Source of the DNA: an uncultured Anaerolineae bacterium
GTDB taxonomy: Bacteria; Chloroflexota; Anaerolineae; Anaerolineales; UBA11858
Direction of reading: 5' to 3'
Assembly (NCBI GenBank): GCA_937893815.1
Contig: CALCSH010000025.1
Coordinates: 1-32,071, forward strand
DNA length: 32,071 nucleotides
Positions 2,930 to 24,537 of this stretch are shown in pieces. Every line of letters starts with the position of its first letter. Position 1 is the first letter of the stretch. The position numbers and the translations under genes are program-made. A model generated the notes under the pieces. The model did no database searches, was not told the DNA's origin, and saw only the letters and a program-made list of their open reading frames with translations.

Positions 2930-4588
2930 CTAAAAGAAATCGGGCTCGTGGTCGCTGGAATGACTTCCCCCGGTTTGTTCGTGATAAATCTCGAGCCAGG
3001 TTGCCATGCGGTTATTCTCGCGTTCGGCCTCTCTCTTTTTACCTTCGTATTCAAGAGTTTCTTGGTAGTCGAATATATCCTGATGTACTCTGGCAGGGTT
3101 GTGAACATCATAGAACAATAATGTAATATCTCCAACATTAATTTTTACGGTTCCGATATCGAGAATGATATTTAATAGGGTTGGCCGTTCGTGCTCTACG
3201 CTCAAAACATTCACCAGAGGCGCTGATTGAACTGATTCTTTACCCAACGGTTTTTTTTCACGATCTATGATTTTATCTTTGGTGAGACGATAAATATCAT
3301 TGTCCCAATCTGTGTAAACGTAGATCCACCATACAGCACAAAATCCTACTAGGATTAATCCTGTTATAAAAACTTGTTCTGCAGGCACTTTATTTTTTAC
3401 CAGCAATAGAATTGATATTATCAGGATAGTTGGCACAATAATAGTAGGCCAAATTAATTTTTTAAATAATACAAACCAATGTTTATGGTAGGTAATAATA
3501 TCGCCATCTACTTCACGAGTTGAAAAAGGGCCAGGTCGCCGCGAATTTTTATCTAGAGATGTTTGAGAATTGTTTGTTTGATTTTGGGTACGTTCTTTAT
3601 CTTTTTCAGTATCATAGTTAAGTCTTTGGCGAATCGTGCGAGCGATTTCATCGAGTTTGGCTTGCTGATTTTTTCTGCGAACACGTTTGATTAAACGCTC
3701 GATGAGTTCATTCATTTGCGAGGGATTATCAACATTGGTCATCTCTACGCGTCCAGTGTACGTGCGAACGGTAACATTGCCAAAATTAAATGTGCGCCCC
3801 CAGAAATTTGTGTCTACTTTTACGGATTGAATAGCTGATAAAGGGGCTTCTCGGCGACTATCACTTTTTAGAAGTACTTGTTCTAACCATACCACTCGCT
3901 GATTAGTAACTATAAAATAGTCATTGCGCCAATCAGCAAATTTCCATATCCCCAAAGGAATAGGGAATACTAACAATAAACCTCCTGTCAGATAAACAAG
4001 GATGGTGTTGATAATATTACTTTCGATTTGTTTGCTCATGAGAAATAGGGCGAACAATACAAGTGCAATCAAAAAAGGGGCAATAATATCTCTTGCTAAC
4101 AAAAACACATGTCGTCGACTAATCAAGTAGATTACCTCACCTTCTGATAACCAGTCAAAACGTAGGCGCATAGCGCGACGGTGAGTATGTTTAATTGCCT
4201 CTAAATGTAGTTTGACTTTGGGGCATGTTCGTACCAACCAATTAAAGTCTTCTTCATCAAGATATAAGAGGGTTGTTTCCTCAGTAGCCATTGCGGAAGC
4301 AGTTCGAGGGTGTCTAAACAATAGACCGTATTCGCCTAGGTGATCTCCATTTTCAAATAACCCAATATCTACGCGTTTACTACCTCGTGTATACCATACC
4401 CGAATATGCCCACTTACGATAATATAGAAATTATCTGCGACATCATTTTGCTTGAACAGGATTTCATCTTGGGCTATCTTACGCTCAATCAGACGATCCG
4501 CGATATCTGAAATCTCATCATGGCATAATTCTCCAAAAATGGGAGTGTGACTTAAAAACTCAATTCTCTCATTGATTTCCGGCAACAT
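2930..4588 (-). CDS. Cyclic-nucleotide-binding domain protein fused to a YdbT-like membrane module with two bPH_2 (DUF304) domains
   Basis: The 552-aa product has an N-terminal cNMP-binding domain (FGELCHDEI...FYIIVSGHIRV...GEYGLLFRHPRTASAMA; RTASA is the phosphate-binding-cassette signature). It is followed twice by a TM hairpin plus a PH-like unit (WRNDYFIVTNQRVVWLE and WDNDIYRLTKDKIIDRE). The gene is much more AT-rich than its neighbours. Confidence 0.75.
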   Translation of the reverse strand: MLPEINERIEFLSHTPIFGELCHDEISDIADRLIERKIAQDEILFKQNDVADNFYIIVSGHIRVWYTRGSKRVDIGLFENGDHLGEYGLLFRHPRTASAMATEETTLLYLDEEDFNWLVRTCPKVKLHLEAIKHTHRRAMRLRFDWLSEGEVIYLISRRHVFLLARDIIAPFLIALVLFALFLMSKQIESNIINTILVYLTGGLLLVFPIPLGIWKFADWRNDYFIVTNQRVVWLEQVLLKSDSRREAPLSAIQSVKVDTNFWGRTFNFGNVTVRTYTGRVEMTNVDNPSQMNELIERLIKRVRRKNQQAKLDEIARTIRQRLNYDTEKDKERTQNQTNNSQTSLDKNSRRPGPFSTREVDGDIITYHKHWFVLFKKLIWPTIIVPTILIISILLLVKNKVPAEQVFITGLILVGFCAVWWIYVYTDWDNDIYRLTKDKIIDREKKPLGKESVQSAPLVNVLSVEHERPTLLNIILDIGTVKINVGDITLLFYDVHNPARVHQDIFDYQETLEYEGKKREAERENNRMATWLEIYHEQTGGSHSSDHEPDFF

Positions 4589-4603
4589 AATTCCATTTTA
4601 GCA
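4589..4603 (-). promoter_or_regulatory. Extended -10 box (TGCTAAAAT) 6 nt upstream of the ATG at 4588; candidate leaderless promoter
   Basis: The minus strand reads TGCTAAAAT-GGAATT-ATG. There is no SD-like purine run between the box and the start codon. Confidence 0.35.
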
Positions 4604-4623
4604 CAGCAAGCAAAAATATTTGA

Positions 4624-4632
4624 TGATACAAT
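4624..4632 (+). promoter_or_regulatory. Candidate extended -10 box (TGATACAAT) for the phosphohexomutase gene
   Basis: A TGnTACAAT box lies about 100 nt upstream of the ATG at 4735. That gene has its own SD (AGGAG 4722-4726, 8-nt spacing). Confidence 0.3.
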
Positions 4633-4734
4633 CAGCGCGACATACGAAAAATTAGGATATATGCAAGCGTGATGAGCGAAGTAAGCATAACTTTCAACGA
4701 ATTGCACAAATCCTAAAAAATAGGAGCAAGACTC

Positions 4735-6195
4735 ATGCCCATTCATTTTGGCACCGACGGCTGGCGAGCTGTCATCTCGGATACATTCACCTTCCACAAT
4801 CTGCGCCTGGTGACGCAGGCAATTGCCGATGCGATCAACTCCGGCGACTGGCAGACGCTCAATCCATCGGGGCGCAGTATCGACCCGCATAAATTTGTGG
4901 TCGGTTTTGATACTCGTTTTCTCTCTGATCGTTACGCCGCCGATGTGGCGCGTGTGCTGGCGGCCAATGGCTATACGGTTTTTCTGGCACAATCTGATGC
5001 GCCTACCCCGGCGATTTCATACGCGGTACGACATTTGGGCGCCGCTGCCGGGGCTGTGATTACAGCATCGCATAATGCGCCGCGCTATAACGGTATCAAG
5101 CTCAAAGCCGCTTATGGCGGATCGGCGCAGCCCGAACAGTCGCGTCGGGTGGAAGTTTACCTGAACGATAACGAAGAACGCGGCCGCGGCCCGAGCATGA
5201 TGGATTGGGATCAGGCGCGCAAGTTAGGGTTGATCGAACGTTTCAATCCGATACCTGCCTACTACGATCATCTGCGCACATTAATTGACTTTGACAAAAT
5301 AGCTGATAGACCGCCTCGCATCGTCGTCGATTCGATGCATGGCTCCGGGCGCGAGGTGATAAAAGGCATTCTCAAAGGCACGGGTTGTGAAGTCCATGAA
5401 ATCCGCGGCGAAATGAATCCCGGTTTTGGGGGGACACACCCAGAACCGATTAGCCGCAATCTGGGCGCGCTCGCCGGAGCGATCGGCACGGGCTTGGGAG
5501 ATCTGGGTCTGGCCACTGACGGCGACGGCGACCGGATTGGTGCGATGGACGGACGTGGTAATTTTGTCGATCCGCATAAAATCATGGCGCTGGCATTGCG
5601 TTATTTAGTCGAAGAGCGTGGCTGGAGCGGACCGGTTGTGCGCACAGTCTCTACCACGCGCATGATCGACCGCCTTGCCGAGCGCTATAATCTACCTGTC
5701 TACGAGACACCGGTGGGGTTCAACCATATTGCCGATTATATGCTCAAAGAAGATGTGCTCATCGGCGGTGAAGAATCCGGTGGTATCTCGTTCAAAGGAC
5801 ATATTCCCGAAGGGGATGGCGTTCTGATGGGCCTGCTGCTCGTTGAAATGGTGGCGGCTTCCCGCACGCCGCTAGACGAATTGGTCGCTGACTTAATCGC
5901 CGATGTTGGCCCAGCTTTTTATGAACGCAAAGACATGCGCCTAAATCACCCGGTTGCCAAAGCCAAGCTGGTGGCACGCTTGGTGGATGAAGCCCCCACT
6001 GAAATCGGCGGCGAGAGTGTGCAAGATATAGTATCCACGGATGGGATTAAATACATCATGGCCGATGATTCCTGGCTGCTGATTCGCCCTTCGGGGACAG
6101 AACCGGTTTTGCGTGTCTATGCAGAAGGTCGCAGCGAAAAAATGGTTTCAGAACTTTTGAAATATGGCGGCCAGGTTGCCGCCAGTGCTACGTAA
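4735..6195 (+). CDS. Phosphoglucomutase/phosphomannomutase family alpha-D-phosphohexomutase
   Basis: The 486-aa product has the catalytic Ser loop TASHNAPRYNGIK, the metal loop ATDGDGDRIGAMD, the sugar loop GGEESGG and the phosphate loop RPSGTEPVLRVYAEG. Confidence 0.9.
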   Translation: MPIHFGTDGWRAVISDTFTFHNLRLVTQAIADAINSGDWQTLNPSGRSIDPHKFVVGFDTRFLSDRYAADVARVLAANGYTVFLAQSDAPTPAISYAVRHLGAAAGAVITASHNAPRYNGIKLKAAYGGSAQPEQSRRVEVYLNDNEERGRGPSMMDWDQARKLGLIERFNPIPAYYDHLRTLIDFDKIADRPPRIVVDSMHGSGREVIKGILKGTGCEVHEIRGEMNPGFGGTHPEPISRNLGALAGAIGTGLGDLGLATDGDGDRIGAMDGRGNFVDPHKIMALALRYLVEERGWSGPVVRTVSTTRMIDRLAERYNLPVYETPVGFNHIADYMLKEDVLIGGEESGGISFKGHIPEGDGVLMGLLLVEMVAASRTPLDELVADLIADVGPAFYERKDMRLNHPVAKAKLVARLVDEAPTEIGGESVQDIVSTDGIKYIMADDSWLLIRPSGTEPVLRVYAEGRSEKMVSELLKYGGQVAASAT

Positions 6196-6262: not shown

Positions 6263-6292
6263 AAAAGCCCCCTTCAACCGAAGGGGGCTTTT
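6263..6292. terminator. Bidirectional intrinsic terminator between the phosphohexomutase gene and the 8-gene minus-strand operon
   Basis: AAAAGCCCCCTTC (6263-6275), loop AACC, GAAGGGGGCTTTT (6280-6292). The A-tract on one side and T-tract on the other give a U-tail on both strands. Confidence 0.8.
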
Positions 6293-6309: not shown

Positions 6310-6885
6310 CTACTGCGCCGTACGCAACCTTCTGGCAAAAATAATCACCAAAACCAGCGCAGCAGCCAGCGATAACATCCCCGGAATTCCAACATCATCT
6401 GCGAAACCTGTGGAGGGAAGTTGTGTCGCCGCGGGGGTGACAGTCATTAAATTTGACGCCTGTTGAGTGAAGAGCGCCGCCATCGTTGCCGTGAGATGAT
6501 CCTCACGCGATTGAGCCAGTCCCGCGGCGGGCGTATCAGTAATTGCCATCACCGGGGTTGGGCTGGATGTTGCCGTAACGGGCAAGGGTGTCTGGGTAGC
6601 GGTGGGAGTCGCGGTCCACGATTGGGCTTCCGCGGTCATATTTGCCGCCAGGGCTACCTGAGTGTTTTGAGCATTAATTTGGGCAATCTGGGTGCTTTCT
6701 GCCGTCCGGCGCCGGGGCACAATCACCATCGCATAAACAGCCATCAGCACCAGTGACAGGATGAGGAACGCGCCCAATACACCAGCAACCAGTAAAAAGG
6801 TACGATTGCTCGATTCTTCGGGTGGAGTTGCCTCGTCCCCTTCCATTTCCAAATCATCAAAGTCGAAATCATCCATCATAGTCAT
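6310..6885 (-). CDS. Thr/Ala/Pro-rich membrane protein with a C-terminal LPXTG-like sorting signal
   Basis: The 191-aa product has an acidic N-terminus, a TM segment (FLLVAGVLGAFLILSLVLMAVYAMVIV) and a T/A/P-rich segment. It then has LPSTG, about 10 residues, a hydrophobic stretch (IPGMLSLAAALVLVIIFA) and a basic tail RRLRTAQ. A GAGGAG SD lies 8 nt upstream of the ATG. Confidence 0.65.
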   Translation of the reverse strand: MTMMDDFDFDDLEMEGDEATPPEESSNRTFLLVAGVLGAFLILSLVLMAVYAMVIVPRRRTAESTQIAQINAQNTQVALAANMTAEAQSWTATPTATQTPLPVTATSSPTPVMAITDTPAAGLAQSREDHLTATMAALFTQQASNLMTVTPAATQLPSTGFADDVGIPGMLSLAAALVLVIIFARRLRTAQ

Positions 6886-6911
6886 TGTTCGTTCTCCTCA
6901 GGTTGCCCTTT

Positions 6912-7970
6912 TTATATCACTTTTTCCAGATTTGCCAAAGGAACTTTGACTTGTTCGTCATCGGCCAGAGTAATATAAGCGCCCAGGGCGCGAATTCCGC
7001 TTGGAAATTTCAACGGCTCTTGCGACAAAGTCGTGATGCTGCCGGTTTTACCGATATAAGGTGCTTTAATAATGCGCACTTTTTGTCCGGGCGAAAAATC
7101 TTCAACCGCAAGCGACATATCGTGCAAATCGTTGCCCGCATCCAGGGGGATGACAATTTCGGGCCGAATACCTTTGTAATGGTTTACCGACTCCGCATTG
7201 AGCGCTATCTCTCGCCCATTGTTGGTTACCAGTACATTATAGCCTATTGCATTCAAAGGATGAAAGCCAAATCCCTCTAAAACCAGAACGGGGAATTGAG
7301 CTTTTTGGGCGTGGGGAATCATTGCGGTATGCATGCTAACAAAAATCAGCCCGCGCAAGGGAATTTCCGCGGCTTTTTGTAACACTTGCGGGTCATCACA
7401 ATATCCACCCAGAACAATCGCACCGCGCAAGCTTACATCCAACATATCCCTGGTGAGATGACTATCTGGCGAATCGAGTTTGGTTTGCATCAATCCAAAT
7501 TCAGCGCGCCCGTTGCCCCATACGCCTTGTACCAATGCGCCAGTAGTTTCGATGACGGCGCCGCGGTCGGGAATTAGATCGGTGATGGTGCCTGGTATAC
7601 CGGCGTGGAGTTCGTACGGTGGCGTATTCACTTCCATGAGCACTTGCCCATCCCCGGCGACGACGATCCGCCCCGAGCGTGGTGCGCGGACTACCCGTTG
7701 GGTGATTCCGGCTGGCCCGGCGATGAGATCGTCTTTGGTGACAAATTCGCCAGCCGCTCGTTGGATTAAGTCATCTGCTTTTTCCAGGGAGACATGCAAA
7801 CTACGGGCAATATCCAGCAAAATGTGCTCAGGTTCAAGTTGAGCTTCAGCAATTACATCCCGCGCCTCCACTTTTTGCCCCTGGCGCACAATAATATTGC
7901 CAGGGAAGGGCAGTTCGCGGTGACGGCGAATCTTGGTCAGGGGGGTGATGTGAACAACAGGTGCAAGCAT
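6912..7970 (-). CDS. Conserved-looking hypothetical soluble protein (barrel-sandwich-like N-terminus, KOW-like C-terminus)
   Basis: The 352-aa product has no TM segments. N-terminal strands (GNIIVRQGQKVEARDVIAE ... VVRAPRSGRIVVAGDGQVLMEV) resemble biotinyl/HlyD-type hybrid barrels. The C-terminus (GQKVRIIKAPYIGKTGSITTL) is KOW-like. I did not recognise a family. Confidence 0.65.
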   Translation of the reverse strand: MLAPVVHITPLTKIRRHRELPFPGNIIVRQGQKVEARDVIAEAQLEPEHILLDIARSLHVSLEKADDLIQRAAGEFVTKDDLIAGPAGITQRVVRAPRSGRIVVAGDGQVLMEVNTPPYELHAGIPGTITDLIPDRGAVIETTGALVQGVWGNGRAEFGLMQTKLDSPDSHLTRDMLDVSLRGAIVLGGYCDDPQVLQKAAEIPLRGLIFVSMHTAMIPHAQKAQFPVLVLEGFGFHPLNAIGYNVLVTNNGREIALNAESVNHYKGIRPEIVIPLDAGNDLHDMSLAVEDFSPGQKVRIIKAPYIGKTGSITTLSQEPLKFPSGIRALGAYITLADDEQVKVPLANLEKVI

Positions 7971-8002
7971 GGTTACTCTACTAGGTGCAAATTTTATACC
8001 AG

Positions 8003-9757
8003 CTAATTGCCAAGCGTCCAGAGCCAGCGTTGCATAGCTTCGCGGCGGCGATCCAGGTCTGTGGGCAGTTGGATTGGCCGCCCGCGGGCGTCAATCACAA
8101 TGCCGAGAGTGCCACCAACCACGTTGACGCGTCCTCCGCGACCGGGGCCGCCCATGCCCACGTCGAAGCGGTGCAGCGGCTGCAGGTGCAGTTGCGCATT
8201 CTGTCCCTGGGGCAGCGGGATGACCTCGATGCTGCCGAACTTGATTTCATGTTTGGTTTCTGTGCCATTTTCAAATGTAGCGCGTACGCGTAAGATGGGC
8301 GTGCCCTTGCGAGCGATGCCGACCGGAGCGATAACCGTGCCCAGGTTTAGGAAGGCATGCGATTCGAGCACCTGGACCGCCAACAGCGAGTTTGCCTCTG
8401 CCGCTGCGCCTAGAGAAGCGAGAAGGTCATTTTGGTCGATAACTATCGTTGTCACGCCTGCAGGTTGCAAGCCATCAAGCAGCATCAGCAAGCTCTGACC
8501 AGGTGTGGGGGCGTGGCTGATAACGCTGCCCGAGGCCAGAATGGGTTCTACCCACGGCAAAATATTTTGCCCGGCGCTTTTGAAGGCCGGTGGCAACGTC
8601 GACATCGTTTTTTGGGTTGTCAGGCGCAGCATTTGACGCGCTACGGCTTGTTCGATGAAAAGTTCTTCGCGCGTGGCAGGCAGGCTGGCCGGGTAAATCG
8701 ATTTGTTGTAGAGGTAGTTGCGCACATCATCGTTGGCTATATCTTCGGGTAGCCAACGAGAAATTTGCTCGATAGGCATATAATTCAATATCTGATGGAT
8801 AGCATCGCCCAGCCCAAGTTGAGGAAAAACTCTCAGTGTGAGTTCCCCTTTGAGTGCAGCCGCTACGGTGACAGCAGAAGCCCCAATATCAATCCCCAGC
8901 ACACCCTTCTTGGGGTCGTAAATATGGCTCAAAAAACGGATAATGCGCCCGAATGCGGTTGATGAGGGCAATATCCGACCCTCCGCCCACTGATCAAAAT
9001 CCATCACCCCGTACATCTCTTGGGAGCGGATGGTTTTAAAAATCTTGGTGAGTTGCGCTTGCGCTGGTGTGAGCTGCTCGACAGGAATGGATGGACGAAT
9101 ATTGGGCGCCATATGCAGATCGGTGATTGGCGCAATAGCGCTTTCCACCGCTTCTTGGATGGCGCTGTTGCCCGCGTATAAAACCTGCGGGCGTTGACTG
9201 CGCGGCAGCAGGTAGCAGGCCAGCCCAACAGCTTCAAGCAATTTATGTACCGATTGCTCCGCACCACCATCAATACCCCCGGCGACGATAATCAGATCAG
9301 GGCGAGCGCGTAAAATAGCATCAATACGTTCGTCTTGTTTGCGCCGATCGTTAATGCTGATGGTCTCGGTCACAGTAGCGTAGGTAGTAGATGCCAAATT
9401 TCGTGCGCTTTCCAGCGAGACATTTTCCAACAGCCCCACAGCAACCACGCGGATATTGGCGCCCGCAGAGAGAGTAACGACGAGTTTATCCAGGCCGGTG
9501 CCATCGGGTTGGCTTGGAATCAACAGACCGCCATCCGAACCGAGCAGGAGCCGGCCGGTGATTTCCTGCAGACGGTAGATTGCGCGGTTGACGCCTTCAC
9601 GCACATCGCTGAAGGGAGGTGATGCCGTAGTAGGCGCGGTGCCAGCTGCCATAAAACGATAGCGTGAGCCAACCACATCAAATAAAGCCGCTCGCGTCGT
9701 AACAGAGCCAATATCAATCGCCAAAATGGAGTCGGTAACAACAATTGAAGACATCAT
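8003..9757 (-). CDS. ASKHA (actin/Hsp70/sugar-kinase fold) ATPase, GlmL/MutL (glutamate mutase L)-like
   Basis: A phosphate-1-like motif ILAIDIGSVTTRAALFD lies near the N-terminus. LIIVAGGIDGGAEQS resembles the GlmL/MutL GGtDGG motif. A second DxG motif (VLGIDIGASAVTVAA) occurs mid-protein. I prefer the ATG at 9757 (second Met of the track ORF) because it forms an ATGA overlap with the upstream stop at 9754-9756. This gives 584 aa. Confidence 0.6.
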   Translation of the reverse strand: MMSSIVVTDSILAIDIGSVTTRAALFDVVGSRYRFMAAGTAPTTASPPFSDVREGVNRAIYRLQEITGRLLLGSDGGLLIPSQPDGTGLDKLVVTLSAGANIRVVAVGLLENVSLESARNLASTTYATVTETISINDRRKQDERIDAILRARPDLIIVAGGIDGGAEQSVHKLLEAVGLACYLLPRSQRPQVLYAGNSAIQEAVESAIAPITDLHMAPNIRPSIPVEQLTPAQAQLTKIFKTIRSQEMYGVMDFDQWAEGRILPSSTAFGRIIRFLSHIYDPKKGVLGIDIGASAVTVAAALKGELTLRVFPQLGLGDAIHQILNYMPIEQISRWLPEDIANDDVRNYLYNKSIYPASLPATREELFIEQAVARQMLRLTTQKTMSTLPPAFKSAGQNILPWVEPILASGSVISHAPTPGQSLLMLLDGLQPAGVTTIVIDQNDLLASLGAAAEANSLLAVQVLESHAFLNLGTVIAPVGIARKGTPILRVRATFENGTETKHEIKFGSIEVIPLPQGQNAQLHLQPLHRFDVGMGGPGRGGRVNVVGGTLGIVIDARGRPIQLPTDLDRRREAMQRWLWTLGN

Positions 9758-10425
9758 GCGGGGAAGATTAGTATTTTGATAAACTGCCACAAATACATAA
9801 AACGCTCGATCAACGCCGTTATGGCGGCGATATACACACCGGCAAATAAGGCACCAAAGGTGATCGCGATAAATGTTTTACCGCTCCAGCGCAACGCCCG
9901 GGTGAGGAGGCTGGCAGATTGATTTTGGGTTTCGTTTTTACGCGTGCTGAATTGAAAGTAGAGCAATGTACTCAGGGTTCCGACCAAAATCACCAGGGCA
10001 TTAATAAAAGTTTGGTTTTCAAACACGCTCATCGAAGCAACGGTCTGCGGGAATATGGTACCGAAAGTGGCACCACCAATTGCAACTGCGGCACCAATGC
10101 CCACCAAGATTGCGACCGCTGGGTTGCCCAACGGGCTCAGGCGTGGCGATATTTTCATCAACAGTAATACGCTGGGCACCAGGAAACTCACCGCCAGAAA
10201 GATCTCGCCCCGATTGCCATCCAGAAAGGGAAAAATCAGATGCGGCAAAATGATATTGTAGAGCGTCACAATTGTCGTGTAGCCCGCTGCTGTGCCGACA
10301 AAAATATGCGTCGCCAGACGGAAAAGAAAATTATCACCGATGATAAAACTTAACACGAAAATCGTGAGCGTAAATCCCAGTAACGCGCCGCTCAGGTCGG
10401 CCAAACTCATGGTTGCGATATTCAT
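9754..10425 (-). CDS. Polytopic membrane protein (about 6 TM), unknown family
   Basis: I prefer the start at ATG 10425 (MNIATMSLADL...), which forms an ATGA overlap with the upstream stop at 10422-10424. The 37-codon extension in the ORF track is Arg/Gly-rich and overlaps the upstream CDS. The product is about 223 aa and very hydrophobic. Confidence 0.65.
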   Translation of the reverse strand: MNIATMSLADLSGALLGFTLTIFVLSFIIGDNFLFRLATHIFVGTAAGYTTIVTLYNIILPHLIFPFLDGNRGEIFLAVSFLVPSVLLLMKISPRLSPLGNPAVAILVGIGAAVAIGGATFGTIFPQTVASMSVFENQTFINALVILVGTLSTLLYFQFSTRKNETQNQSASLLTRALRWSGKTFIAITFGALFAGVYIAAITALIERFMYLWQFIKILIFPA

Positions 10426-12719
10426 GTGGCCTCTCCAGGGGTTTTCTTGCGGGTGAAATGTGACATCAGGTTGGCCGCGACCCCGATTAGCAGTACGATT
10501 ACGGCGGCCATCAGTGCGTAGTTGAGCGTATCCCAATAGACGCGCGCCAGATTGGGTTTGCCGATCACCTGCTCGTAGGCAGCCCCACCGTTCAGGCCAC
10601 TGATCAGACCGCTGAGCTGGGCGTTAGGCCCACTGGCATAGGGATGTAGAATTGGCTCGGCTTGTGCGCTCACAACTGCTATCAATGGGGTATCTTGCAG
10701 GTATGGTTGCACTTGCTCTAGCCATGTACGAGCGGTATCCGGGTTGTCTGTAATGAGCAGCACCAGCTTGTAATCGGCCAGCGACTGAATCCCACTTAAT
10801 GCCGGTGTTTGCCAGGCTTCCATGCCATCGAAAGAGAGCGGAGTGATTCGACTGGGCATTTGAACAAAGCCCAATAGGCCGGAAGCTCCGCCGGGGATAT
10901 AACCTAAATTGGTGTACTGAATTCCGCTGGTATAGCCGTGTTCGCTTTGAATGGTGTGAATGAAATATTCTGCCAGTGCTGGCCCGGTGGGGGATGTAGA
11001 CACAAGACTCAGGTATGCGCCTTTGAGCATCAAATGATCGATAACGGCAGCCGAGGCGGCATTCATTTCGCCGGATGTGCCGGGTTCGAAGTCGAAGGAA
11101 ACCAGCACCGGATCTGTCGGGGCAAGTGCTTCGATCAAATCTGCCAGATGCAGCATTTCGGCTGGAATAGCTACGCCAGAAGGCGGGGGCACCGTTTGGC
11201 TTTCGCTCATCACACCCAATGCGACCACAAAAATCAATAGCAGAGCGCTTACCCAGCGCAATAAGTTTTGAGTAGAAATATGGATCGGCTCGCGAGTAAA
11301 TTTTGGTGTGCCCTCGTTGTTGAGTAAATCTGTAAAAATACGCACATGTTCTTGTTGCGCCGGAGTGATTTCCAGCTTTGATGTGAATGTTGGCGCTTTT
11401 TTCAGCCGGGCAATTTCTGGCTCGGCCATCAGAACCCCGCTCAACCCGGCCAGCGGTCCGGTTTGCTCGATGGGGCCGTGCTCTGTGGGGTGGTGCGCGG
11501 CGCTAGATTCCACCGGACGCATGGCTTGCAGCCAATCGGGTAAATCTGCCGGAGCTGCCAAATCGTCGGCGGGCGGTTCATCCGCGTCGTAACTATCGCT
11601 AAAAGCGTCGCTCAACGCGTCCAGGGCAAAAAGATCATTATCCGCGTTGCTCAACTCAGATTCCAGGGTGGGCGCTTCAAGTTCGAAGGATTCGGCAGAT
11701 GTTCCCGCTCCGAGCGTTTCCAGCCAATCGGGTTCGAACTCGTCGCTGGGGGTTAAATCGGCTCCAATTCCGACGGCGGATTTTGAATCGGATTCAAAAT
11801 CTGTAGGCCATTCTGGCATCAACGGGCTGGTATCGGGGAGAATGGTGGACAGTGCGGCGGCATGGTCGGGGTCATCCTGGCCCGACATCCAATCTGGTAG
11901 CCCGTCGTCGAATTTCTCGGCGGCGAATTCTTTGGACATCCAGTCGGGTAGGCCGTCACCAGCGGGTGCTGGCTGGCTTTCATCGGGGATGGATGCCGAT
12001 TCGGGTTGATCGTTGTCGGCGCTGAACATCCAATCGGGCAGGGCTTCCCCATCGCTCTCCAGCGCGGGGCTGGCGGATTCGACTGCCGGGGCAGCATGGG
12101 TCAACCAATCGGGGAGTTCGGGATCAGGCTCTGGGCTGGCGGCGGGTATCTCCGGTGTGGATTCTGCCTCTGGGGCGTTGTTGCTGTCGAAGTTCAGCAT
12201 CCAGTCGGGAAGTTCTTCGGATTCCGCTGCGGGAGGTGCTGCGGCTTGATTGCCGCTATCAAGCTTGGAGAGCCAATCGAGCATAGCGTCTTCGGCAGCA
12301 GGGTCAGGTTCTGGCGCGGCAGGCGGCTCTTTGGCTTCGGGAACGCTCATCCATTCGGGTAATTTGCCATCAAAGATCGAAGATTCATCTTCGGATTCGT
12401 CGGCGTCGTCTTCATCGTCGAAGCCGCGCATACGTCCAAGCCAGTCATCACCGGAATCATCAAAGGGAGCGGCATCTTCATCGTCAGGCGAATCCGCTTC
12501 CGGGCGGAGTCCGGCAAGCCAGTCTTCGGGTTCGGCATCCGCTGTGGAGGAAGGTTGATCTTCGAATTCGGATTTCATCCAATCGGGCAATCCGCTGTCC
12601 CCTCGATCAGCATCATCTCCGGAAACAAAGAATGGCGTCAGGCGCGCCTGACAGTATTGACATTTTTCAAGCTGATCGGGGTTGTTTTTGCCGCACATTG
12701 GGCAGCGAATTTCGCTCAT
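10422..12719 (-). CDS. Zinc-ribbon protein with a long acidic W-motif repeat region, two TM segments and an extracytoplasmic domain
   Basis: The 765-aa product starts with CPMC-x10-CQYC (residues 6-23). About 440 residues of D/E/P/A/S-rich sequence follow, containing 13 xP[DE]W[LM]-type motifs. Then come a TM segment (WVSALLLIFVVALGVM), an about 230-aa domain, and a C-terminal TM segment (ALMAAVIVLLIGVAANLM). Confidence 0.8.
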   Translation of the reverse strand: MSEIRCPMCGKNNPDQLEKCQYCQARLTPFFVSGDDADRGDSGLPDWMKSEFEDQPSSTADAEPEDWLAGLRPEADSPDDEDAAPFDDSGDDWLGRMRGFDDEDDADESEDESSIFDGKLPEWMSVPEAKEPPAAPEPDPAAEDAMLDWLSKLDSGNQAAAPPAAESEELPDWMLNFDSNNAPEAESTPEIPAASPEPDPELPDWLTHAAPAVESASPALESDGEALPDWMFSADNDQPESASIPDESQPAPAGDGLPDWMSKEFAAEKFDDGLPDWMSGQDDPDHAAALSTILPDTSPLMPEWPTDFESDSKSAVGIGADLTPSDEFEPDWLETLGAGTSAESFELEAPTLESELSNADNDLFALDALSDAFSDSYDADEPPADDLAAPADLPDWLQAMRPVESSAAHHPTEHGPIEQTGPLAGLSGVLMAEPEIARLKKAPTFTSKLEITPAQQEHVRIFTDLLNNEGTPKFTREPIHISTQNLLRWVSALLLIFVVALGVMSESQTVPPPSGVAIPAEMLHLADLIEALAPTDPVLVSFDFEPGTSGEMNAASAAVIDHLMLKGAYLSLVSTSPTGPALAEYFIHTIQSEHGYTSGIQYTNLGYIPGGASGLLGFVQMPSRITPLSFDGMEAWQTPALSGIQSLADYKLVLLITDNPDTARTWLEQVQPYLQDTPLIAVVSAQAEPILHPYASGPNAQLSGLISGLNGGAAYEQVIGKPNLARVYWDTLNYALMAAVIVLLIGVAANLMSHFTRKKTPGEAT
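11532..12590 (-). repeat. Coding array of 13 short Trp-centred acidic motifs (consensus LPDW[ML])
   Basis: The motifs in order are LPDWM, PEDWL, GDDWL, LPEWM, MLDWL, LPDWM, LPDWL, LPDWM, LPDWM, LPDWM, MPEWP, EPDWL and LPDWL. Every Trp before the first TM lies in one of them. The spacers vary in length and sequence, so this is not a nucleotide-level tandem repeat. Confidence 0.85.
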
Positions 12720-12722
12720 GAG

Positions 12723-13394
12723 CTACCCTCCGTAGGGCCGGTCACTGCCGGTGAGAATGCGAATGCCAGTGGCAATGGTGCCTAAAGCCACGCCGAGTAA
12801 AATGCCGCGTGCGCCAGCCAACGCAGGGACGCGTAAAATCCAATCACGGAATTCGGCGAGTAATGGCGCCTGAGCGGCAATTTGTGGAGCCGCGCCGATC
12901 AGTAGCAGCAAAACGACCCCCACGAACACAATTGAAAATAAATTCAGGCGACGCGAAAGCAGCCGCGCGGCGGCGTAGGTAAGGCTAATGGCCAATACCG
13001 CCATCAGGCTGGTTTCGATGGGCAATTGGATATAGTTGAAGATCCAGCGAATGCGCTGGAAGTTGAGTTCCTGGTGGAGATGGGTTTGTAAGATATCGTA
13101 GATGCCTACGCCGAGTGTGACGATCAGCGAGACAAGCAACACAAAGCTGTATCCGCCGCCCTCATTTTTACGGATTTTGTGCAAATGCACCCCGACCAGG
13201 TTAAAGACACCCACGATCAGCGCCACGGAGGCCCAAATGATAGCGCCTTGTAAAAAATAATTGCGCAAAAAGCCCAAGCTGGTGGTCTCCCCCCTGGCAT
13301 TGGTGCCGAAAATATAGCCCAATAGAACAACAAATCCCACACTGATAGCGATGGCTGTGGAAACTGGAGATTTAAATTTGAAATTAAATTTCAT
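12723..13394 (-). CDS. Polytopic membrane protein (about 6 TM), unknown family
   Basis: The 223-aa product is hydrophobic. Its ATG overlaps the upstream stop (ATGA at 13391-13394), and its stop lies 3 nt before the next ATG (12719). Confidence 0.7.
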   Translation of the reverse strand: MKFNFKFKSPVSTAIAISVGFVVLLGYIFGTNARGETTSLGFLRNYFLQGAIIWASVALIVGVFNLVGVHLHKIRKNEGGGYSFVLLVSLIVTLGVGIYDILQTHLHQELNFQRIRWIFNYIQLPIETSLMAVLAISLTYAAARLLSRRLNLFSIVFVGVVLLLLIGAAPQIAAQAPLLAEFRDWILRVPALAGARGILLGVALGTIATGIRILTGSDRPYGG

Positions 13395-14176
13395 GGGGCC
13401 AGCCCCCCGAGCAGATTGGTGACAAGTTGATCCAGGCCAAGAAATTTGAGGGCCGCCCCAGCAATGATGATAACCACAAGCAGCCAGCGAATCACGTCTT
13501 GGGCGCGCAGGCTGGCGATGTGCATTGGTCCCGCCTGGGTATAGGCTCCGCTGGCGTAAAGTTCTTCTCCGATGAGTGGTTCCTGGGCTGTGGCAAATAG
13601 AATTGCCTGGGCGGGTAGGTTATCGGTCCCAGCCAGGGTCAGATCGTTGTTGCGTTCGGCGGCATCGCTAATCAGGGCGACTTCACTGCCAAAATGTCCG
13701 AGAAGAATATGGGCGTTGGTTTTTTCGTTTTCGACGGTGGCAAGGGTTCCGACGGCGTATGAGAAAGGAGTCATTCCGGCGAGTTCGCCGCTAGTTGGCT
13801 GGTATTGCTCACTGATGCCGATATCGCGGTAGGTGGCGCGCAGAGTATCGCGCGACAGAATGGCGAGTGACGCGTCGCCGCTGGTGGCAATGGGTGGGTT
13901 ATCGCCTGAGGAGGCCGAGCGGGCAATGCTTTCCAGAACGCTTAATCCCACAAAGGCGGCAGCACTTTCTGGCCCGGAGAGTTTGCCGCGCCCAATGCTA
14001 ATATGCAGCCGCGAACCGGCTTCTACGGCCAGCCCGATGGCGCGGCTCAATTTTTGAAACGCGGAAATGGGGCGCAAATGGGTTTCGGAATTCTCACGAT
14101 GCGTGATTGTGAAGATGAGAATCAGTCCGAAAAAAGCGAGAATAAAAGCCAATCCTATAAGACCGGTAAAGGCCAC
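13391..14176 (-). CDS. Membrane protein with N- and C-terminal TM segments flanking an about 200-aa domain, unknown family
   Basis: The 261-aa product uses a GTG start with a GGAGGT SD 8 nt upstream. TM segments lie at both ends (GLIGLAFILAFFGLILIFTI and WLLVVIIIAGAALKFLGL). Confidence 0.7.
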   Translation of the reverse strand: MAFTGLIGLAFILAFFGLILIFTITHRENSETHLRPISAFQKLSRAIGLAVEAGSRLHISIGRGKLSGPESAAAFVGLSVLESIARSASSGDNPPIATSGDASLAILSRDTLRATYRDIGISEQYQPTSGELAGMTPFSYAVGTLATVENEKTNAHILLGHFGSEVALISDAAERNNDLTLAGTDNLPAQAILFATAQEPLIGEELYASGAYTQAGPMHIASLRAQDVIRWLLVVIIIAGAALKFLGLDQLVTNLLGGLAP

Positions 14177-14204
14177 GGGGCGTTACCTCCATATTACTGC
14201 GGAT

Positions 14205-14462
14205 TCAGGATGGTTTCGAGCGGTTTCGCAAATAAGCGCTGAATTCCCGCACTGATTCCGGGTCTTCGAGCATACCGGCGAGGGCGGTGCTGTGCTCCAG
14301 GGGGAAAAATTGTTTGATAGCAGGTTGGCCGAGATAAACAAGTTGTGCGCCTAGAAAATTTAGTGGCCCGGTCGCTTCTAAAAGGGTCGCGACCAAGTTG
14401 TCTAGCCCCCAGCGTTGGAGGGCCTCCGCCCAAGTTTGCCAGAAATTCTGGTTGCTATTCAC
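14205..14462 (-). CDS. Small soluble hypothetical protein (85 aa), first gene of the operon
   Basis: The composition is protein-like (FWQTWAEALQRWGLDNLVATLLEATGPLNFLGAQLVYLGQP). It starts at GTG with no SD and sits immediately downstream of an extended -10 box. Confidence 0.5.
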   Translation of the reverse strand: MNSNQNFWQTWAEALQRWGLDNLVATLLEATGPLNFLGAQLVYLGQPAIKQFFPLEHSTALAGMLEDPESVREFSAYLRNRSKPS

Positions 14463-14468
14463 GGGCTA

Positions 14469-14477
14469 AGTATAGCA
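14469..14477 (-). promoter_or_regulatory. Extended -10 box (TGCTATACT) 6 nt upstream of the GTG at 14462; candidate promoter of the 8-gene operon
   Basis: The minus strand reads TGCTATACT-TAGCCC-GTG. The -35 position falls inside the upstream terminator hairpin, which is compatible with an extended -10 promoter that does not need a -35. Confidence 0.3.
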
Positions 14478-14484
14478 TAAATCC

Positions 14485-14526
14485 AAAAAGGGATGCAGCG
14501 CGGGCAAGCCGCCAGCATCCCTTTTT
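14485..14526 (-). terminator. Intrinsic terminator downstream of the 74-aa gene
   Basis: AAAAAGGGATGC (14485-14496) pairs with GCATCCCTTTTT (14515-14526) around an 18-nt GC-rich loop. A U-tail is available on the minus-strand transcript. Confidence 0.65.
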
Positions 14527-14547: not shown

Positions 14548-14772
14548 TTATTCGCTAAACGGGTCGTATGTGGGGTTGGTTCCAGCCCATAGGCAACTGG
14601 CGCGCCCGTCGAGGTTGCAGACTATGCCCTCGCTGCACCGATGAGCCACAATGCGCGGCGGTTGATCGGGCAGCCAGTCGGCCGGGTAAATGACTTCCGC
14701 TTCCAGCCCAACTTCTTTGCCGACATGGTGGCAATAACTGATCTTCTCCACTTCCCAGGTTTTTACCGACAT
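14548..14772 (-). CDS. Small Cys/His-containing hypothetical protein (74 aa)
   Basis: A strong SD (GGAGG) lies 7 nt upstream of the ATG, and the gene has its own terminator. There are four Cys (C14, C46, C52, C60), including the CHH run at residues 14-16. I did not recognise a family. Confidence 0.6.
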   Translation of the reverse strand: MSVKTWEVEKISYCHHVGKEVGLEAEVIYPADWLPDQPPRIVAHRCSEGIVCNLDGRASCLWAGTNPTYDPFSE

Positions 14773-15063
14773 GGCATGACCTCCAATAAAATTTTCGTTT
14801 TTTTTTACAGGCCTACATGCATAACTGACGGTTCCAGTATGCCAGAACCCTTTTTAGTATACCAGTGTCAGGCATCCTTGTGCAGATATGACAATATTCT
14901 GGATGAACTTTGTCGGAATCGCTGATTCATAAGCCCCCAGGGAGTTCGCTAATCACCTGGGTGAAATAATTGACGCAGGCTCGATATTTGCATATTCAAA
15001 GAATCAGGTCAAAAATCCCTGGGATCTTTGCCGCTAGTTTCTGGGCTTATTTTCCAACCCCGA

Positions 15064-15072
15064 TGGTAAAAT
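15064..15072 (+). promoter_or_regulatory. Extended -10 box (TGGTAAAAT) 7 nt upstream of the ATG at 15080; candidate leaderless promoter
   Basis: The sequence reads TGGTAAAAT-CCAGAGC-ATG with no convincing SD. Confidence 0.35.
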
Positions 15073-15079
15073 CCAGAGC

Positions 15080-16075: not shown

Positions 16076-19000
16076 ATGATGTTGATAAATACCAGAAACT
16101 TTTCACCACGAAGGATACGAAGAACCACAAAGAAAGACTTTGTGAATCTTCGTGCCCTTCGTGGTTTATTCGTTTTTACTGTCTTTTTGTTGGTGGGTTG
16201 TACTGCGCCCCCGGTGGCAACATCTTCGCCCACCGCGGCGAAAAGTGAATCAACACCAACAGAAACCGTGCAGGTTGTAGTTCCACCCATGGCGCAATTT
16301 TCGCAAATCTTAGCCGGTGTAGATGGCAATAACAACTACGACTTCATTGAATTGAGTAACCCAGGCAGCGACGCCCCCTTCGATCTACGTGGCATGTCGC
16401 TGTGGTATCAACTCGCCGATGGCGGTGAAGCCGAACTGGTTTATCAATGGGATGAGCATGCTCTGATTCCGCCAGGCGGATTCTATCTTTTAGGACGCGC
16501 CGTCGAAGATTATGGCCTGCCCGTGGAGGCTTTTATTGAAACGCCACTGGTACCCCAACGCGGCGGACTGCAATTGCGCGCCGCTGATAATACTGTGCTG
16601 GATTCGTTGGTGTGGGGAAATGGCCCGCAAACTGATTTTGGCGTTGTTTCCGTCCAGGCGATGTCTAATGGAGTCGCTTTGGTGCGCAACCGGGGTGCAT
16701 TCGTCCTCAATTCGGCACTTGCGCCGCGCAACACAACTTTGTTCGGCGATCTCCAAATTGCACTGGAAGCTCCAGCGACGGTCAACCCTGGCGAAGAATT
16801 TATCTATTCTCTCACCCTACGCAATGTTGGCGCAGTTCCGGCCAGCGGCCTGACCGCTCAAATTCCCATCGCCAATGATTTCGAAATTATTGCACTGGCT
16901 CCCGATATGCAGCTTGTCGATCAGGCGGCTTTCTTTGGTCTGGATGCGCTTGGCGAGACGCACCAGATCATCTTGCTGCCCATCGATACTCTCGCCGCCG
17001 GTGAGACGCGCTCCTCTGAAATTAGGCTCAAAGCGCCTTGGACTTATCTCACGATGACCGCGGCCAATATCACCCTGGCTGATGCCAGTGGCGCATGGCT
17101 GGCGCAGGCTGGCACGCAGCGAACCGCTGTGGCCGGGGGCGCAATTCCAATCGGCACGGCGCGGGGAATGGCGAATCAGGAAATTATTGTTGAAGGCATT
17201 GCCACGATGTATTCCGGCGGCTACTATGCTGGCAGCGGCAACACCAAATTCTATATCGAAGATGAAACCGGTGGCTTGCAGGTTTGGGTGGATGATGGCG
17301 AAACCGATGTGCATGTGGCGTTGGGGGACCGCGTGCGCGTGCGTGGCATGTTGCTGGTCTATCGAAACGCCATGGAATTGGCACCAACATCCGCGGGCGT
17401 AGAAGTTATCGAAAAAGGTACGGATGCCGCATCCTGGCCCGCTTTGACAGTTAGCGTCGAGGACGCCGCCAATGATGCGCAGCATCTCGCTGGAAGGCTG
17501 ATTCAGACCGAGGGAACAGTTGCCCGCATCGAGGAGTTCAGCTACAGCTATGAGATCGACCTGGTAGACGAGTCCGGAAATCTGGCGAGCATCTATGTTG
17601 ATAAACTCACCGAAATCAACATGGAAGCCATCCAGAGCGGTGAAACCTACCGCGTCACCGGCGTGGTTGAAGTCACTGATGATACCCCACGGATTTACCC
17701 GCGCATCCAGAGCGATTTGGCGAAGGTCTATCCGCCGGTTCTGGAGGTTGTGATCAATGCCCCGGCGGCGGTAAAGGCTGGCGAAGAATTCAGCGTAACT
17801 CTGACCATCACCAACTACACACCCGACATGCTGACCGATGTCGCCGTGACGGCCCCCTTGCCCGCATACGATTTTCGAGTGCTGGCGATTGCTGACGGGG
17901 GCGTAGAAGAGAACAAAACGATCACCTGGACGATTCCGCAGTTGGCCGCGGAAGGCGGCGCAGTCCGTGTTTCGTATCAGGCGCTGCTGGTGACCCGTCA
18001 GGCTTCGATTCAGTTGAAGCCCGCCCAGGCCAGCGCCGAGGGGGTGGAGCCTGCCGAGAGCCTGGCGCTGGATGTTTTCATTGGCGATCAGGTGCCAGTA
18101 TGGGCCATTCAAGGGGTGGGTGAGCGCTCGCCGTATGTTGGCGAAAGCGTGACCACGACTGGCGTTGTCACCGGTATTTTCCCCGCGCTGGATGGCTTCT
18201 GGATTCAGTCCAAAGAAACCGACTATGATTCCCGGACTTCGGATGGTCTGTTTGTGTGCCGCGGGGCGCTGGCTGACGATCTGCGGCCCGGCGATTGGGT
18301 GCAGGTCAGTGGCGTGGTGCGTGAGGCCTACCAGCAAACCTGCCTGGAAATCGCTGCTGCACAGGATGTTGTCACGCTCAGTTCAGCCCATACGCTACCC
18401 GTGGCCGAAGAATTGAATCCACCCGCCGAGATAGAAGCGTCACTGGCGTATTACGAGAGTCTGGAAGGTATGTTCGTGCAGATCACGCAAGCGGCCTTCG
18501 TTGTCGCCCCCAGCAATCGCTATGGTGAATATACCCTCGTGCGCGCCGATCAGGGTGTAACGCGCTTGTGGCAAGGCCAGGAGAACGGCAACGCAATTGT
18601 CGTAGATGACGGCAGTAATATCGCCCACGATGACCGCTCCACGATGGCCTATGTCGTCAACAGCGGCGATCAAGTTACCAATCTCATTGGGCCGCTGGCA
18701 TTCACTTATGGACAGTACAAAATTGAGCCGGTGGCGAAGCCTGCCGTGCTGGCCGTGCAAGCTGATTTGCCCAGCCTGCCTGCCCTGGCAACTGACGAAT
18801 TCAGCCTGATGACCTGGAATGTCGAGAATCTCTTCGATTTCACCGACCCGCATCCCTCCAGCCCGCCCATGCCGTCAATTGACGAATATCGCATTCAGAT
18901 CGCCAAAGTAGCCAACACCATCGTGGCTGCTGGAGCGCCGATCATCGTGGGTTTGCAAGAAGTCGAGAATATCGGCATTTTGGAAGATATTGTTGCCCAG

Positions 19001-23330: not shown

Positions 23331-23739
23331 TTCACTTTCCCAAATTCCCGATCCCGGCCAGGAGCGAAAACAGTCGGCACATGAACGCCAACCAGACCTG
23401 ACCAGTAGCGATCCGTATACCGTTTTGGGCTTGCCGAGCCGCGCCCCGGCCCGCGAAATTAAGCGCAAATACTTCGAATTGGTGCGCCAATACCCCCCCG
23501 AAACACATGCCGATGAATTCAAACTGGTAAGAGCGGCCTATGAAAAACTGCAAACTGAAGAGGCCAAAGCCGAAACTGATCTATTCTTATTTCAACCCCC
23601 GCCCCCCTGGGAGCCTCGCAAGCGCGCCTCAAAATTTGATCTGGCGTTTGATCCGCAAGACATTTGGCTGCTACTGCAAAGCCACGCCGATCTGGGGGCC
23701 GTCGATTTCACAGCCGATTATCGTCAGGTGAAGATATGA
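23311..23739 (+). CDS. J-like domain protein lacking the HPD tripeptide
   Basis: DPYTVLGLPSRAPAREIKRKYFELVRQYPPETHADEFKLVRAAYEKL aligns with J-domain helices I-III, but it has PPE where HPD is expected. The start is ambiguous (TTG 23290, ATG 23311, 23320 or 23323), and all candidates overlap the end of the TPR gene. Confidence 0.7.
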   Translation: MNSMMIDSLSQIPDPGQERKQSAHERQPDLTSSDPYTVLGLPSRAPAREIKRKYFELVRQYPPETHADEFKLVRAAYEKLQTEEAKAETDLFLFQPPPPWEPRKRASKFDLAFDPQDIWLLLQSHADLGAVDFTADYRQVKI

Positions 23740-24437: not shown

Positions 24438-24468
24438 AACGACTATGACTCTCTGAGATTTTGCGTGG

Positions 24469-24530
24469 TATTCTCCATATCTGGACATTACCACGCGAAC
24501 TCTCAAAAAACAAACGCTATATGGAGAATA
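24469..24530 (+). promoter_or_regulatory. Inverted repeat able to sequester the Hsp70 SD sequence (candidate translational control element / RNA thermometer)
   Basis: TATTCTCCATAT (24469-24480) is the exact reverse complement of ATATGGAGAATA (24519-24530). The second arm contains the only SD-like sequence (GGAG 24523-24526) before the ATG at 24538. A second stem, GCGTGGTA (24463-24470) with TACCACGC (24489-24496), is adjacent. Confidence 0.45.
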
Positions 24531-24537
24531 TGTCCTT

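Follow-up and report, generated by a model that had tools for sequence, protein, structure and literature searches.

A stretch of 32,071 nucleotides (nt) from an uncultured Anaerolineae bacterium of the order Anaerolineales (contig CALCSH010000025.1 of assembly GCA_937893815.1, referred to here as the window) carries eight genes on its minus strand that form a conserved, co-oriented and tightly packed unit with its own conserved promoter across the class Anaerolineae. We name these genes g1–g8 in operon order, running from 14462 to 6310, and their products combine several membrane proteins with g6, a predicted actin-fold ATPase of the ASKHA type, and g4, an acidic membrane protein carrying repeated copies of a short tryptophan motif which may act as a docking scaffold. 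No known system combines these parts, and searches of open-access full texts provided no description of them; the operon has a function that we infer and a distribution known from the Anaerolineae.

Conservation and organisation of the operon

The eight-gene arrangement recurs in the same order across related loci and this is more than chance. A survey of one genome per GTDB species, using two peptide patterns taken from the C-terminal domain of g6, identified the signature in at least 581 species, and the best 80 survey loci were all from Anaerolineae/Chloroflexota metagenome-assembled genomes (MAGs). Gene order was then compared by tblastn of the eight window proteins against these 80 loci (the close clade), with g4–g8 found in 79–80 of them (the range of identities for each protein is given in Table 1). 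The initial annotation of the window had proposed that the genes belong together, and this was borne out by both the order and strand of g1–g8, which are identical in all 68 loci whose contig extends as far as g1, and by the retention of the g2–g8 order in a second, more distant clade. The spacing of the genes is also conserved, with the ATGA overlap between g2 and g3 retained in 60 of 69 loci and the g1/g2 and g4/g5 distances both having a median of -4 across related loci. A wider protein search with g6 returned more than 2000 relatives, of which the best 120 are all 574–588 amino acids (aa) in length, at least 56% identical, and from Chloroflexi or Anaerolineales wherever named, and a single-protein metagenome scan returned one 3-kb locus.

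The second clade was reached by a profile search with the g7 family (2372 clusters at E ≤ 1e-3 and 704 at E ≤ 1e-30, with the best 150 clusters already reaching down to 30% identity) followed by one further search step. Here g6 and g7 are 37% and 31% identical to the window proteins, and the genes run in the order DUF6754, a membrane protein of about 220 aa, g4, a second membrane protein of about 220 aa, the MutL ATPase, g7 and g8. The flanking genes are wholly different and include ClpB, HSP20, FtsX, ABC transporters and proteases, and since the g2–g8 order has survived amongst unrelated flanks, we consider these genes to be a unit and not a product of background synteny. Even within the close clade the upstream flank is variable, and the PGM gene found downstream in the window is missing from several loci with enough sequence to have included it. 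Among the matches listed, the named members of both clades are all Anaerolineae or Chloroflexota.

The boundaries of the genes are well supported. Eight same-strand open reading frames (ORFs) had been described between the GTG at 14462 and the stop at 6310, and all are present at these positions in the ORF list; the 4-nt overlaps (13391–13394, 10422–10425 and 9754–9757), the 3-nt gap (12720–12722) and the remaining gaps of 28, 32 and 26 nt follow from the coordinates. The two Shine–Dalgarno sequences noted earlier, GGAGGT before 14176 and GAGGAG before 6885, are both visible in the sequence. All eight translations were found in a public protein collection with letter-for-letter identity, including the ATG starts at 10425 and 9757, and independent gene calls reproduce the eight-gene layout in related contigs. 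Both terminators proposed for the locus were recovered as well, with the downstream hairpin (6263–6292) scored on both strands, where it is common to the 3' end of the operon and a convergent PGM/GlmM-like gene, and the upstream hairpin found at about 14495–14526. Hydropathy and composition agree with the product list given in the initial annotation, placing transmembrane (TM) segments at both ends of g2, about six each in g3 and g5, and two each in g4 and g8. In total the gene set encodes some 18 TM segments, along with two soluble proteins, a long motif array in the cytoplasm and a single tail of the wall-sorting type.

A conserved extended -10 promoter, ATTTRTGCTATACT, is located 6–7 nt ahead of g1. 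In 64 of 69 loci the 9-mer TGCTATACT lies at most 150 nt ahead of g1, with a spacing of 6–7 nt in 49 of these, and both strands of the related loci (1.465 Mb) contain only 66 copies in total, nearly all of them at the g1 position; no -35 element is conserved upstream of g1 across these loci. With the promoter ending so close to g1, transcription would start at or next to the start codon and the operon mRNA is probably leaderless. The position of the promoter would define where the unit begins as well as which start codon g1 uses. The stop/start overlaps indicate that most of the operon is translationally coupled, and the conservation of these overlaps together with that of the promoter argues for one main transcript.

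Leaderless-type boxes are also found in the window at 4589–4610 (-), ahead of a cNMP-binding gene, and at 15058–15079 (+), ahead of a flippase-like gene. In all three cases extended -10 boxes of the form TGnTAnAAT or TGnTATACT end 6–7 nt before the start codon, and of the three it is the g1 copy alone that shows perfect conservation between species. As the two other genes share the same architecture with less perfect boxes, leaderless initiation is probably common in this organism, and the g1 promoter would represent the consensus version. A weak promoter-like site at 7991–8020 (-), consisting of TGGACG, an 18-nt spacer and TAAAAT, overlaps the g6 stop codon, extends some way into the g6–g7 gap and could be the source of a secondary g7–g8 transcript.

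Table 1. Coordinates of the operon genes and associated features in the window, with the identity of close-clade homologs to each window protein (tblastn).
Feature	Position	Strand	Identity, close clade	Description
Promoter, extended -10	14469..14482	-		ATTTATGCTATACT (TGn-TATACT); ends 6 nt before the g1 GTG
g1	14205..14462	-	34–68%	85 aa; GTG start
g2	13391..14176	-	45–84%	261 aa
g3	12723..13394	-	38–88%	223 aa
g4	10422..12719	-	29–62%	765 aa
g4 Zn ribbon	12651..12704	-		CPMCGK...CQYCQARL, residues 6–23; weak Zn_ribbon_3/DZR matches
g4 acidic W-motif array	11520..12593	-		Residues ~43–400; consensus E-x-E-phi-P-D-W-L-x-x-L
g4 inter-TM domain	10518..11204	-		Residues ~506–734, TM at 487–505 and 735–753; alpha/beta-like
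g5	9754..10425	-	41–80%	223 aa
g6	8003..9757	-	49–84%	584 aa
g6 C-terminal extension	8006..8359	-		Residues ~467–584; outside the PF13941 match, which ends at residue 466
g7	6912..7970	-	41–82%	352 aa
g8	6310..6885	-	31–83%	191 aa
g8 LPSTG	6406..6420	-		Read from the sequence
Bidirectional intrinsic terminator	6263..6292	both		13-bp stem between an A tract and a T tract
Terminator-like hairpin	14485..14526	-		Belongs to the preceding 74-aa gene; upstream limit of the unit

The encoded proteins

The g6 product is predicted to be an ASKHA-fold protein with phosphate-1, phosphate-2 and adenosine motifs. It matches PF13941 (MutL/GlmL) across residues 11–466 with 234.8 bits against a cut-off of 27 (E 2.2e-69), and the AlphaFold2 model (predicted local distance difference test (pLDDT) 88, predicted template-modelling score (pTM) 0.89) shows an ASKHA core followed by a beta-rich domain (469–557) and a terminal helix (568–583). 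A Foldseek search with this model produced 304 PDB matches at E ≤ 1e-3 and the best 50 were all ASKHA-type, though as relatives they are distant, with TM-scores of 0.25–0.45 for N-methylhydantoinase, acetone/acetophenone carboxylase, PilM, FtsA and Hsp70. The best structural matches include complexes of PilM with PilN and of FtsA with FtsN/FtsZ peptides (5eou, 7q6i and 4a2a), and no significant sequence relative was found in the PDB, even by profile search. Seven residues associated with the three motifs (D15, G17, T21, G288, D290, G292 and G410) are invariant in close-clade g6 proteins. The phosphate-2 aspartate D290 (in GIDIGAS; window position ~8888–8890) is replaced by asparagine in five of the six second-clade proteins (the ATPase genes of L084–L088), which hints at nucleotide binding without efficient hydrolysis in the second clade.

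It should be noted that some database records label g6 relatives as 'glutamate mutase L', and that these labels are probably wrong for the Anaerolineae group. The window protein falls below every relevant NCBIfam cut-off, scoring 97.3 against 475 for NF040745 (GlmL), 67.1 against 600 for NF040744 (the ornithine-pathway relative of GlmL, Or-4) and 63.5 against 204 for the subfamily model TIGR01319. No B12-dependent mutase or B12-binding gene is present among the window neighbours, the conserved flank families or the Pfam-labelled loci L081–L089, in agreement with the earlier remark that glutamate mutase is absent from the window.

Beyond the PF13941 match, g6 carries a C-terminal extension made up of a beta domain with PLHRFDVGMGGPGRGG...IDARGRP and a terminal helix ending in WLxxL. 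This extension has no Pfam match, and both the domain and the terminal W-L-x-x-L are conserved in the two clades, with the latter (residues ~570–584; 8006–8050 on the minus strand) being invariant in both and having the same core as the motif repeated in g4. Such a shared core hints at a groove in g6 for the W motif, which might be filled either in cis by WLxxL, acting as a pseudo-ligand, or by the scaffold.

In the g4 product a four-Cys Zn ribbon is followed by an acidic disordered W-motif region, a conserved GPLAGLxGVLxAEPE block and two TM segments that enclose a domain of about 225 aa. The four cysteines (C6, C9, C20 and C23) are invariant in 30 orthologues. The protein is strongly acidic (137 D+E against 33 K+R) and has 13 [DE]W[LMP] motifs of the PDW[LM] type, in which the tryptophan is preceded by P at -2 (75%) and D at -1 (62%) and is followed by L at +1 (71%). 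The domain between the TM segments shows conserved blocks in the orthologue alignment and is predicted by the positive-inside rule to be extracytoplasmic; neither it nor the C-terminal part as a whole has a Pfam match or a PDB match by profile search, and no paralogous relationship between the g2 domain and the C-terminal domain of g4 was detectable.

Close-clade g4 orthologues range from 500 to 950 aa with 1–19 motifs, and second-clade homologues (L084–L089) are between 2051 and more than 2733 aa in length, with 34 PDW[LIV] motifs in the 2051-aa homologue of L085 (1385–7540). The Zn ribbon and the TM–domain–TM frame remain constant while the number of motifs and the length vary widely, and since it is the middle that varies and the two ends that do not, we take this as the signature of a putative multivalent docking scaffold. 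The view of g4 as a multivalent scaffold had been put forward in the initial annotation, and is strengthened by the recognition of a defined short linear motif, PDWL, present in 1 to 34 or more copies across relatives. The g4 orthologue of a low-coverage Anaerolinea thermophila MAG (L064:6875–9313) contains one in-frame stop, and this is probably a sequencing error and not the mark of a pseudogene.

The last gene, g8, encodes an acidic N-terminal tail with NRTF, a TM segment, a Thr/Pro-rich outer stretch, LPSTG, a second TM segment and RRLRTAQ. Of the 80 close-clade loci, 68 show the [LV]PxTG–TM–RRLR pattern, no ORF other than g8 carries it there, and second-clade proteins (L083–L085) retain VPETG, the TM segment and ARRLRTA. 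The acidic N tail with NRTF is also conserved in both clades.

For g7, the AlphaFold2 model (pLDDT 85, pTM 0.59) suggests a soluble protein of three parts, namely an N-terminal beta region resembling a barrel-sandwich hybrid, a small alpha/beta domain and a C-terminal KOW/SH3-like barrel. Foldseek matches were weak and at the level of domains only (NusG/Spt5 KOW, and the RraA-family and UPF0107 folds), and sequence matches to RnfC_N and KOW were also weak, with RnfC_N (E 0.0055) below the cut-off; some g7 relatives carry Biotin_lipoyl matches. Five arginines are conserved in the N-terminal part (R16, R18, R29, R92 and R95) and these would suit acidic ligands. We considered an Rnf/Nqr-type complex, given that g7 begins in an RnfC_N-like manner and that two of the products have about six TM segments, and rejected this as no match to an Rnf-Nqr family was found and there are no cysteines in g3 or g5. 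A recurrent 24-residue resemblance of the g7 'QGVWGNG' loop to a 'Lysozyme' chain with three repeats (5i8l, E 8e-4) was also discounted as a short-motif coincidence, with the second clade lacking the motif.

The remaining products are less informative. The initial annotation had held that only the ATPase fold belongs to a named family, and this is correct for g6 (PF13941) but overlooks g2, which is a member of the Pfam family DUF6754 (PF20539; 109.4 bits against 27, E 2.1e-31). The g2 product has a TM segment at each end with a domain of about 195 aa between them, and the DUF6754 label is found on its counterpart in L081, L085 and L086; the family has no assigned function. The 85-aa g1 protein has no TM segment and shows conserved W8, W11 and W18 together with GPLxLLGAQxVYLGQP in an alignment of 33 sequences. 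The g3 and g5 products each have about six TM segments in 223 aa, with a conserved C-terminal GARGILLGVALGTIATGLRIL..DRPYGG in g3 and a conserved GDNPLFR and Gly-rich helices in g5, and no relation between the two was detectable that would make them paralogues. No Pfam or NCBIfam match was found for g1, g3 or g5, and profile searches gave no PDB relative for any of these or for g2.

Searches of all eight proteins and their sub-domains against Pfam, NCBIfam and PADLOC found only DUF6754 and MutL, with no match to a defence system, and profile searches of the PDB with g1, g2, g3, g5, g6, g7 and the C-terminal part of g4 found nothing significant. We found the cluster, DUF6754 and the PDWL motif described nowhere in open-access full texts, in searches that also covered PF13941, actin-like GlmL proteins and the Chloroflexota cytoskeleton. 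None of the genes could be placed in a described pathway by Pfam, NCBIfam, PADLOC, PDB profiles, AlphaFold2 with Foldseek, or the full-text literature, and the operon has thus kept the unassigned status it was given at the outset. We had also entertained a replacement divisome, on the premise that Anaerolineae might be without FtsZ, and dropped this premise when literature searches gave it no support.

Proposed assembly and alternative explanations

PilM- and FtsA-type ASKHA proteins are positioned in the cell by short peptides of their membrane partners. The most economical reading of the operon is that a PilM/FtsA-like g6 and g7 are docked on a membrane scaffold formed by g4 and have a role in the envelope or in morphogenesis, a reading we offer tentatively and rate at a little below even. 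In such an assembly the DUF6754 protein g2, g3, g5 and the two-TM C-terminal part of g4 would form a core in the cytoplasmic membrane, from which g4 would extend a long, acidic and disordered chain into the cytoplasm with its many E-x-E-phi-P-D-W-L-x-x-L helical motifs and the N-terminal Zn ribbon. This array and the acidic N tail of g8 would recruit or concentrate the soluble g6 and g7 at the membrane, much as PilM is recruited to the N-terminus of PilN or FtsA to FtsZ/FtsN peptides, and the assembly would switch its state as g6 binds or hydrolyses nucleotide. The connection to the cell wall would be made on the outside by the alpha/beta-like domain of g4 and by g8, which would be held by its N-terminal TM segment and has a C-terminal LPxTG signal of the sortase type.

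The most likely role for this assembly would be in building or organising the envelope of multicellular filaments (wall growth, septation or cell–cell attachment) rather than a metabolic one. A fuller version, in which an Anaerolineae-specific envelope-organising machine uses g4 to concentrate a repurposed g6 and its partner into a polymer or condensate that is coupled, via a wall-anchored stalk protein, to filament growth, septation or cohesion, is in our view doubtful as it stands.

A number of observations weigh against the docked assembly and its link to the envelope. The top Foldseek matches of g6 are enzymes (N-methylhydantoinase and acetone/acetophenone carboxylase) and not scaffolds, and the TM-scores are low; the FtsA, PilM and MreB models of Pfam do not match g6, for which PF13941 is the sole match at E ≤ 0.1; and the terminal helix of g6 (568–583), with a hydrophobic moment of only ~0.3, is not strongly amphipathic. 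For g8, the LPXTG hidden Markov model thresholds are not reached (15.3 bits against 20 for PF00746, and no match to an NCBIfam LPXTG anchor), the N-terminus is a conserved acidic tail with a TM segment and not a cleavable, classical signal peptide, and there is no sortase-like ORF in the flanks of the operon; a literature search on sortases in Chloroflexi provided nothing usable. The envelope link comes from topology and motifs alone. Finally, the close-clade flanks are partly syntenic (the PGM/GlmM-like, cNMP-binding, def and recF-like genes).

The enzyme matches of g6 suggest another explanation, that of an ATP-driven enzyme or transporter in which g6 would be a hydantoinase/carboxylase-like, ATP-dependent catalytic subunit, g7 a partner whose barrel-sandwich and swivel-like domains might bear an intermediate, and g3 and g5 a permease for substrate or product, so that the complex would serve metabolism or transport and not structure. 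This would fit with the assistance given to enzymes by PF13941 relatives, the weak resemblances of g7 to RnfC_N/biotin-lipoyl-type, RraA- or UPF0107-like proteins, and the small, Gly-rich and polytopic nature of g3 and g5 with their conserved polar residues in the membrane. However, it offers no place for a multi-kilodalton acidic chain of 13 to 34 or more motifs or for an LPxTG-tailed protein, and cofactor motifs are missing, with no cysteines in g3 and g5 and one each in g6 and g7. Neither a substrate-binding protein nor a known transporter family was found in our searches, and the loss of the phosphate-2 aspartate in most second-clade ATPases suits a binder better than a catalyst, and we regard this explanation as unlikely.

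It might be supposed instead that the system is dedicated to the handling of g8, with the membrane proteins and the ATPase exporting, positioning or attaching g8 or its polymer at a site organised by g4. The position of g8, which is always last in the operon, and the conservation in both clades of its mucin-like Thr/Pro-rich stretch and [LV]PxTG–TM–RRLR tail would be expected under this explanation. Yet we found neither a sortase nor a signal peptidase or secretion ATPase within the unit or beside it, we know of no ASKHA ATPases acting as export motors, and the conserved cytoplasmic N tail and TM segment make g8 look more like a component of an assembly than its cargo, so that we consider this to be distinctly improbable.

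The last alternative, that g6 is a true GlmL-type reactivase of a B12 mutase and the membrane genes are mere syntenic neighbours, agrees with the strong PF13941 match, the naming of relatives as 'glutamate mutase L' in several records and the synteny of other flanking genes in the close clade, but is close to refuted by the scores of g6 far under the GlmL, ornithine-pathway and TIGR01319 cut-offs, the lack of a mutase or B12-binding gene in the window or any locus examined, the extra conserved C-terminal domain of g6, the persistence of the unit through a complete turnover of flanks in the second clade, and the stop/start overlaps which tie g6 to the membrane genes.

The PGM/PMM-family gene that converges on the operon (4735–6195, +) has its best match in the archaeal-type phosphoglucosamine mutase, scoring 300 bits where the cut-off is 439. 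It adjoins the operon in most close-clade loci (63 of 80) and is absent beside the second-clade operon. We have given this PGM/GlmM-like neighbour less weight as a functional clue, since close-clade synteny takes in the whole downstream region and several loci, like the second clade, lack the gene. Directly upstream of the operon is a 74-aa ORF (14548–14772, -) with four cysteines, which contains PADWLPD, resembling the g4 motif; it has its own promoter-like site (14884–14856) and terminator and is found beside the operon in only 4 of the 80 loci. A 1184-aa protein (16076–19630, +) has lamin-tail, DUF11, OB-fold and endonuclease/exonuclease/phosphatase domains, and a homologue is located divergently upstream of the operon in 31 loci. 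Elsewhere in the window, a grpE-like gene is followed by a gene for a 572-aa Hsp70/DnaK-type protein (23664–26256, +), an actin-fold ATPase unrelated to the operon. G+C content falls to 0.38–0.43 at 3001–5000 compared with ~0.52–0.58 elsewhere in the window, and this dip covers the cNMP-binding/bacterial-PH-domain gene (2930–4588), although the synteny of this gene extends to 49 related loci.

In sediments, digesters and activated sludge, few bacteria are as abundant and as poorly understood as the Anaerolineae. They form thin multicellular filaments, and to our knowledge almost nothing is known of the growth, division and cohesion of these filaments. Eight linked genes kept in every species checked provide a concrete entry point into the biology of this class, all the more so as seven of the products are without functional annotation and the eighth is from a family known only as an enzyme helper. 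If the docked assembly is correct, bacteria would be putting the actin fold to a new use, g4 would be one of the rare giant multivalent short-motif scaffolds in bacteria, and the assembly would link the cytoplasm directly to the wall in a monoderm-like envelope. Multivalent short-motif scaffolds are best known from eukaryotic endocytic and signalling hubs. Whatever the mechanism, the conserved and probably leaderless promoter would be a ready-made expression signal for Anaerolineae.

Comparison with the closest known systems

GlmL/MutL is the sole sequence family which g6 joins, and they share the ASKHA nucleotide-binding fold. They differ in the additional C-terminal beta domain of about 120 aa and WLxxL tail of g6, and in genomic context, as in the loci examined g6 is never beside a mutase and is always among genes for membrane proteins. 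The hydantoinase A and acetone/acetophenone carboxylase ATPase subunits provide the best Foldseek E-values for g6 (1.8e-10 to 3e-8), but with identities of only ~11–12% and a TMq of at most 0.32, and in place of their partner catalytic subunits the operon has membrane and scaffold-like proteins. Compared with the filament formers MreB, ParM and MamK, g6 has no sequence membership.

The PilM–PilN(–PilO) and FtsA–peptide systems resemble the operon in the fold class of g6 and in the pairing of an ASKHA protein with bitopic membrane proteins bearing conserved cytoplasmic peptides, for which the candidates here would be the PDWLxxL array of g4 and the N tail of g8. The phi-P-D-W-L of the g4 motif presumably resembles the core of the FtsZ tail, (D/E)-I-P-x-F-L, which is bound by FtsA. 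In contrast to these systems, g6 shows TM-scores of only 0.3–0.45, is not a member of either family by sequence and would at most act in their manner, there are no pilus, secretin, FtsZ or divisome genes in the operon, and the predicted ligand is a multivalent array with up to dozens of motifs per chain.

Sortase substrates share with g8 the LPSTG, the hydrophobic stretch and RRLR, a pattern retained in 68 orthologues and in the second clade. They differ in that the g8 match is below the model threshold, that the acidic N tail and TM anchor replace a cleavable signal peptide, and that the residues following the Gly (FADDVG) are conserved, which is unusual for a sorting signal. Finally, linkers of the RodZ/ZipA type have a layout similar to that of g4, with a small N-terminal module, a disordered region, a TM segment and an outer domain, though they show no homology to g4, which has two TM segments and a linker that would be far from passive, given its repeated and position-specific motif in 1 to 34 or more copies.

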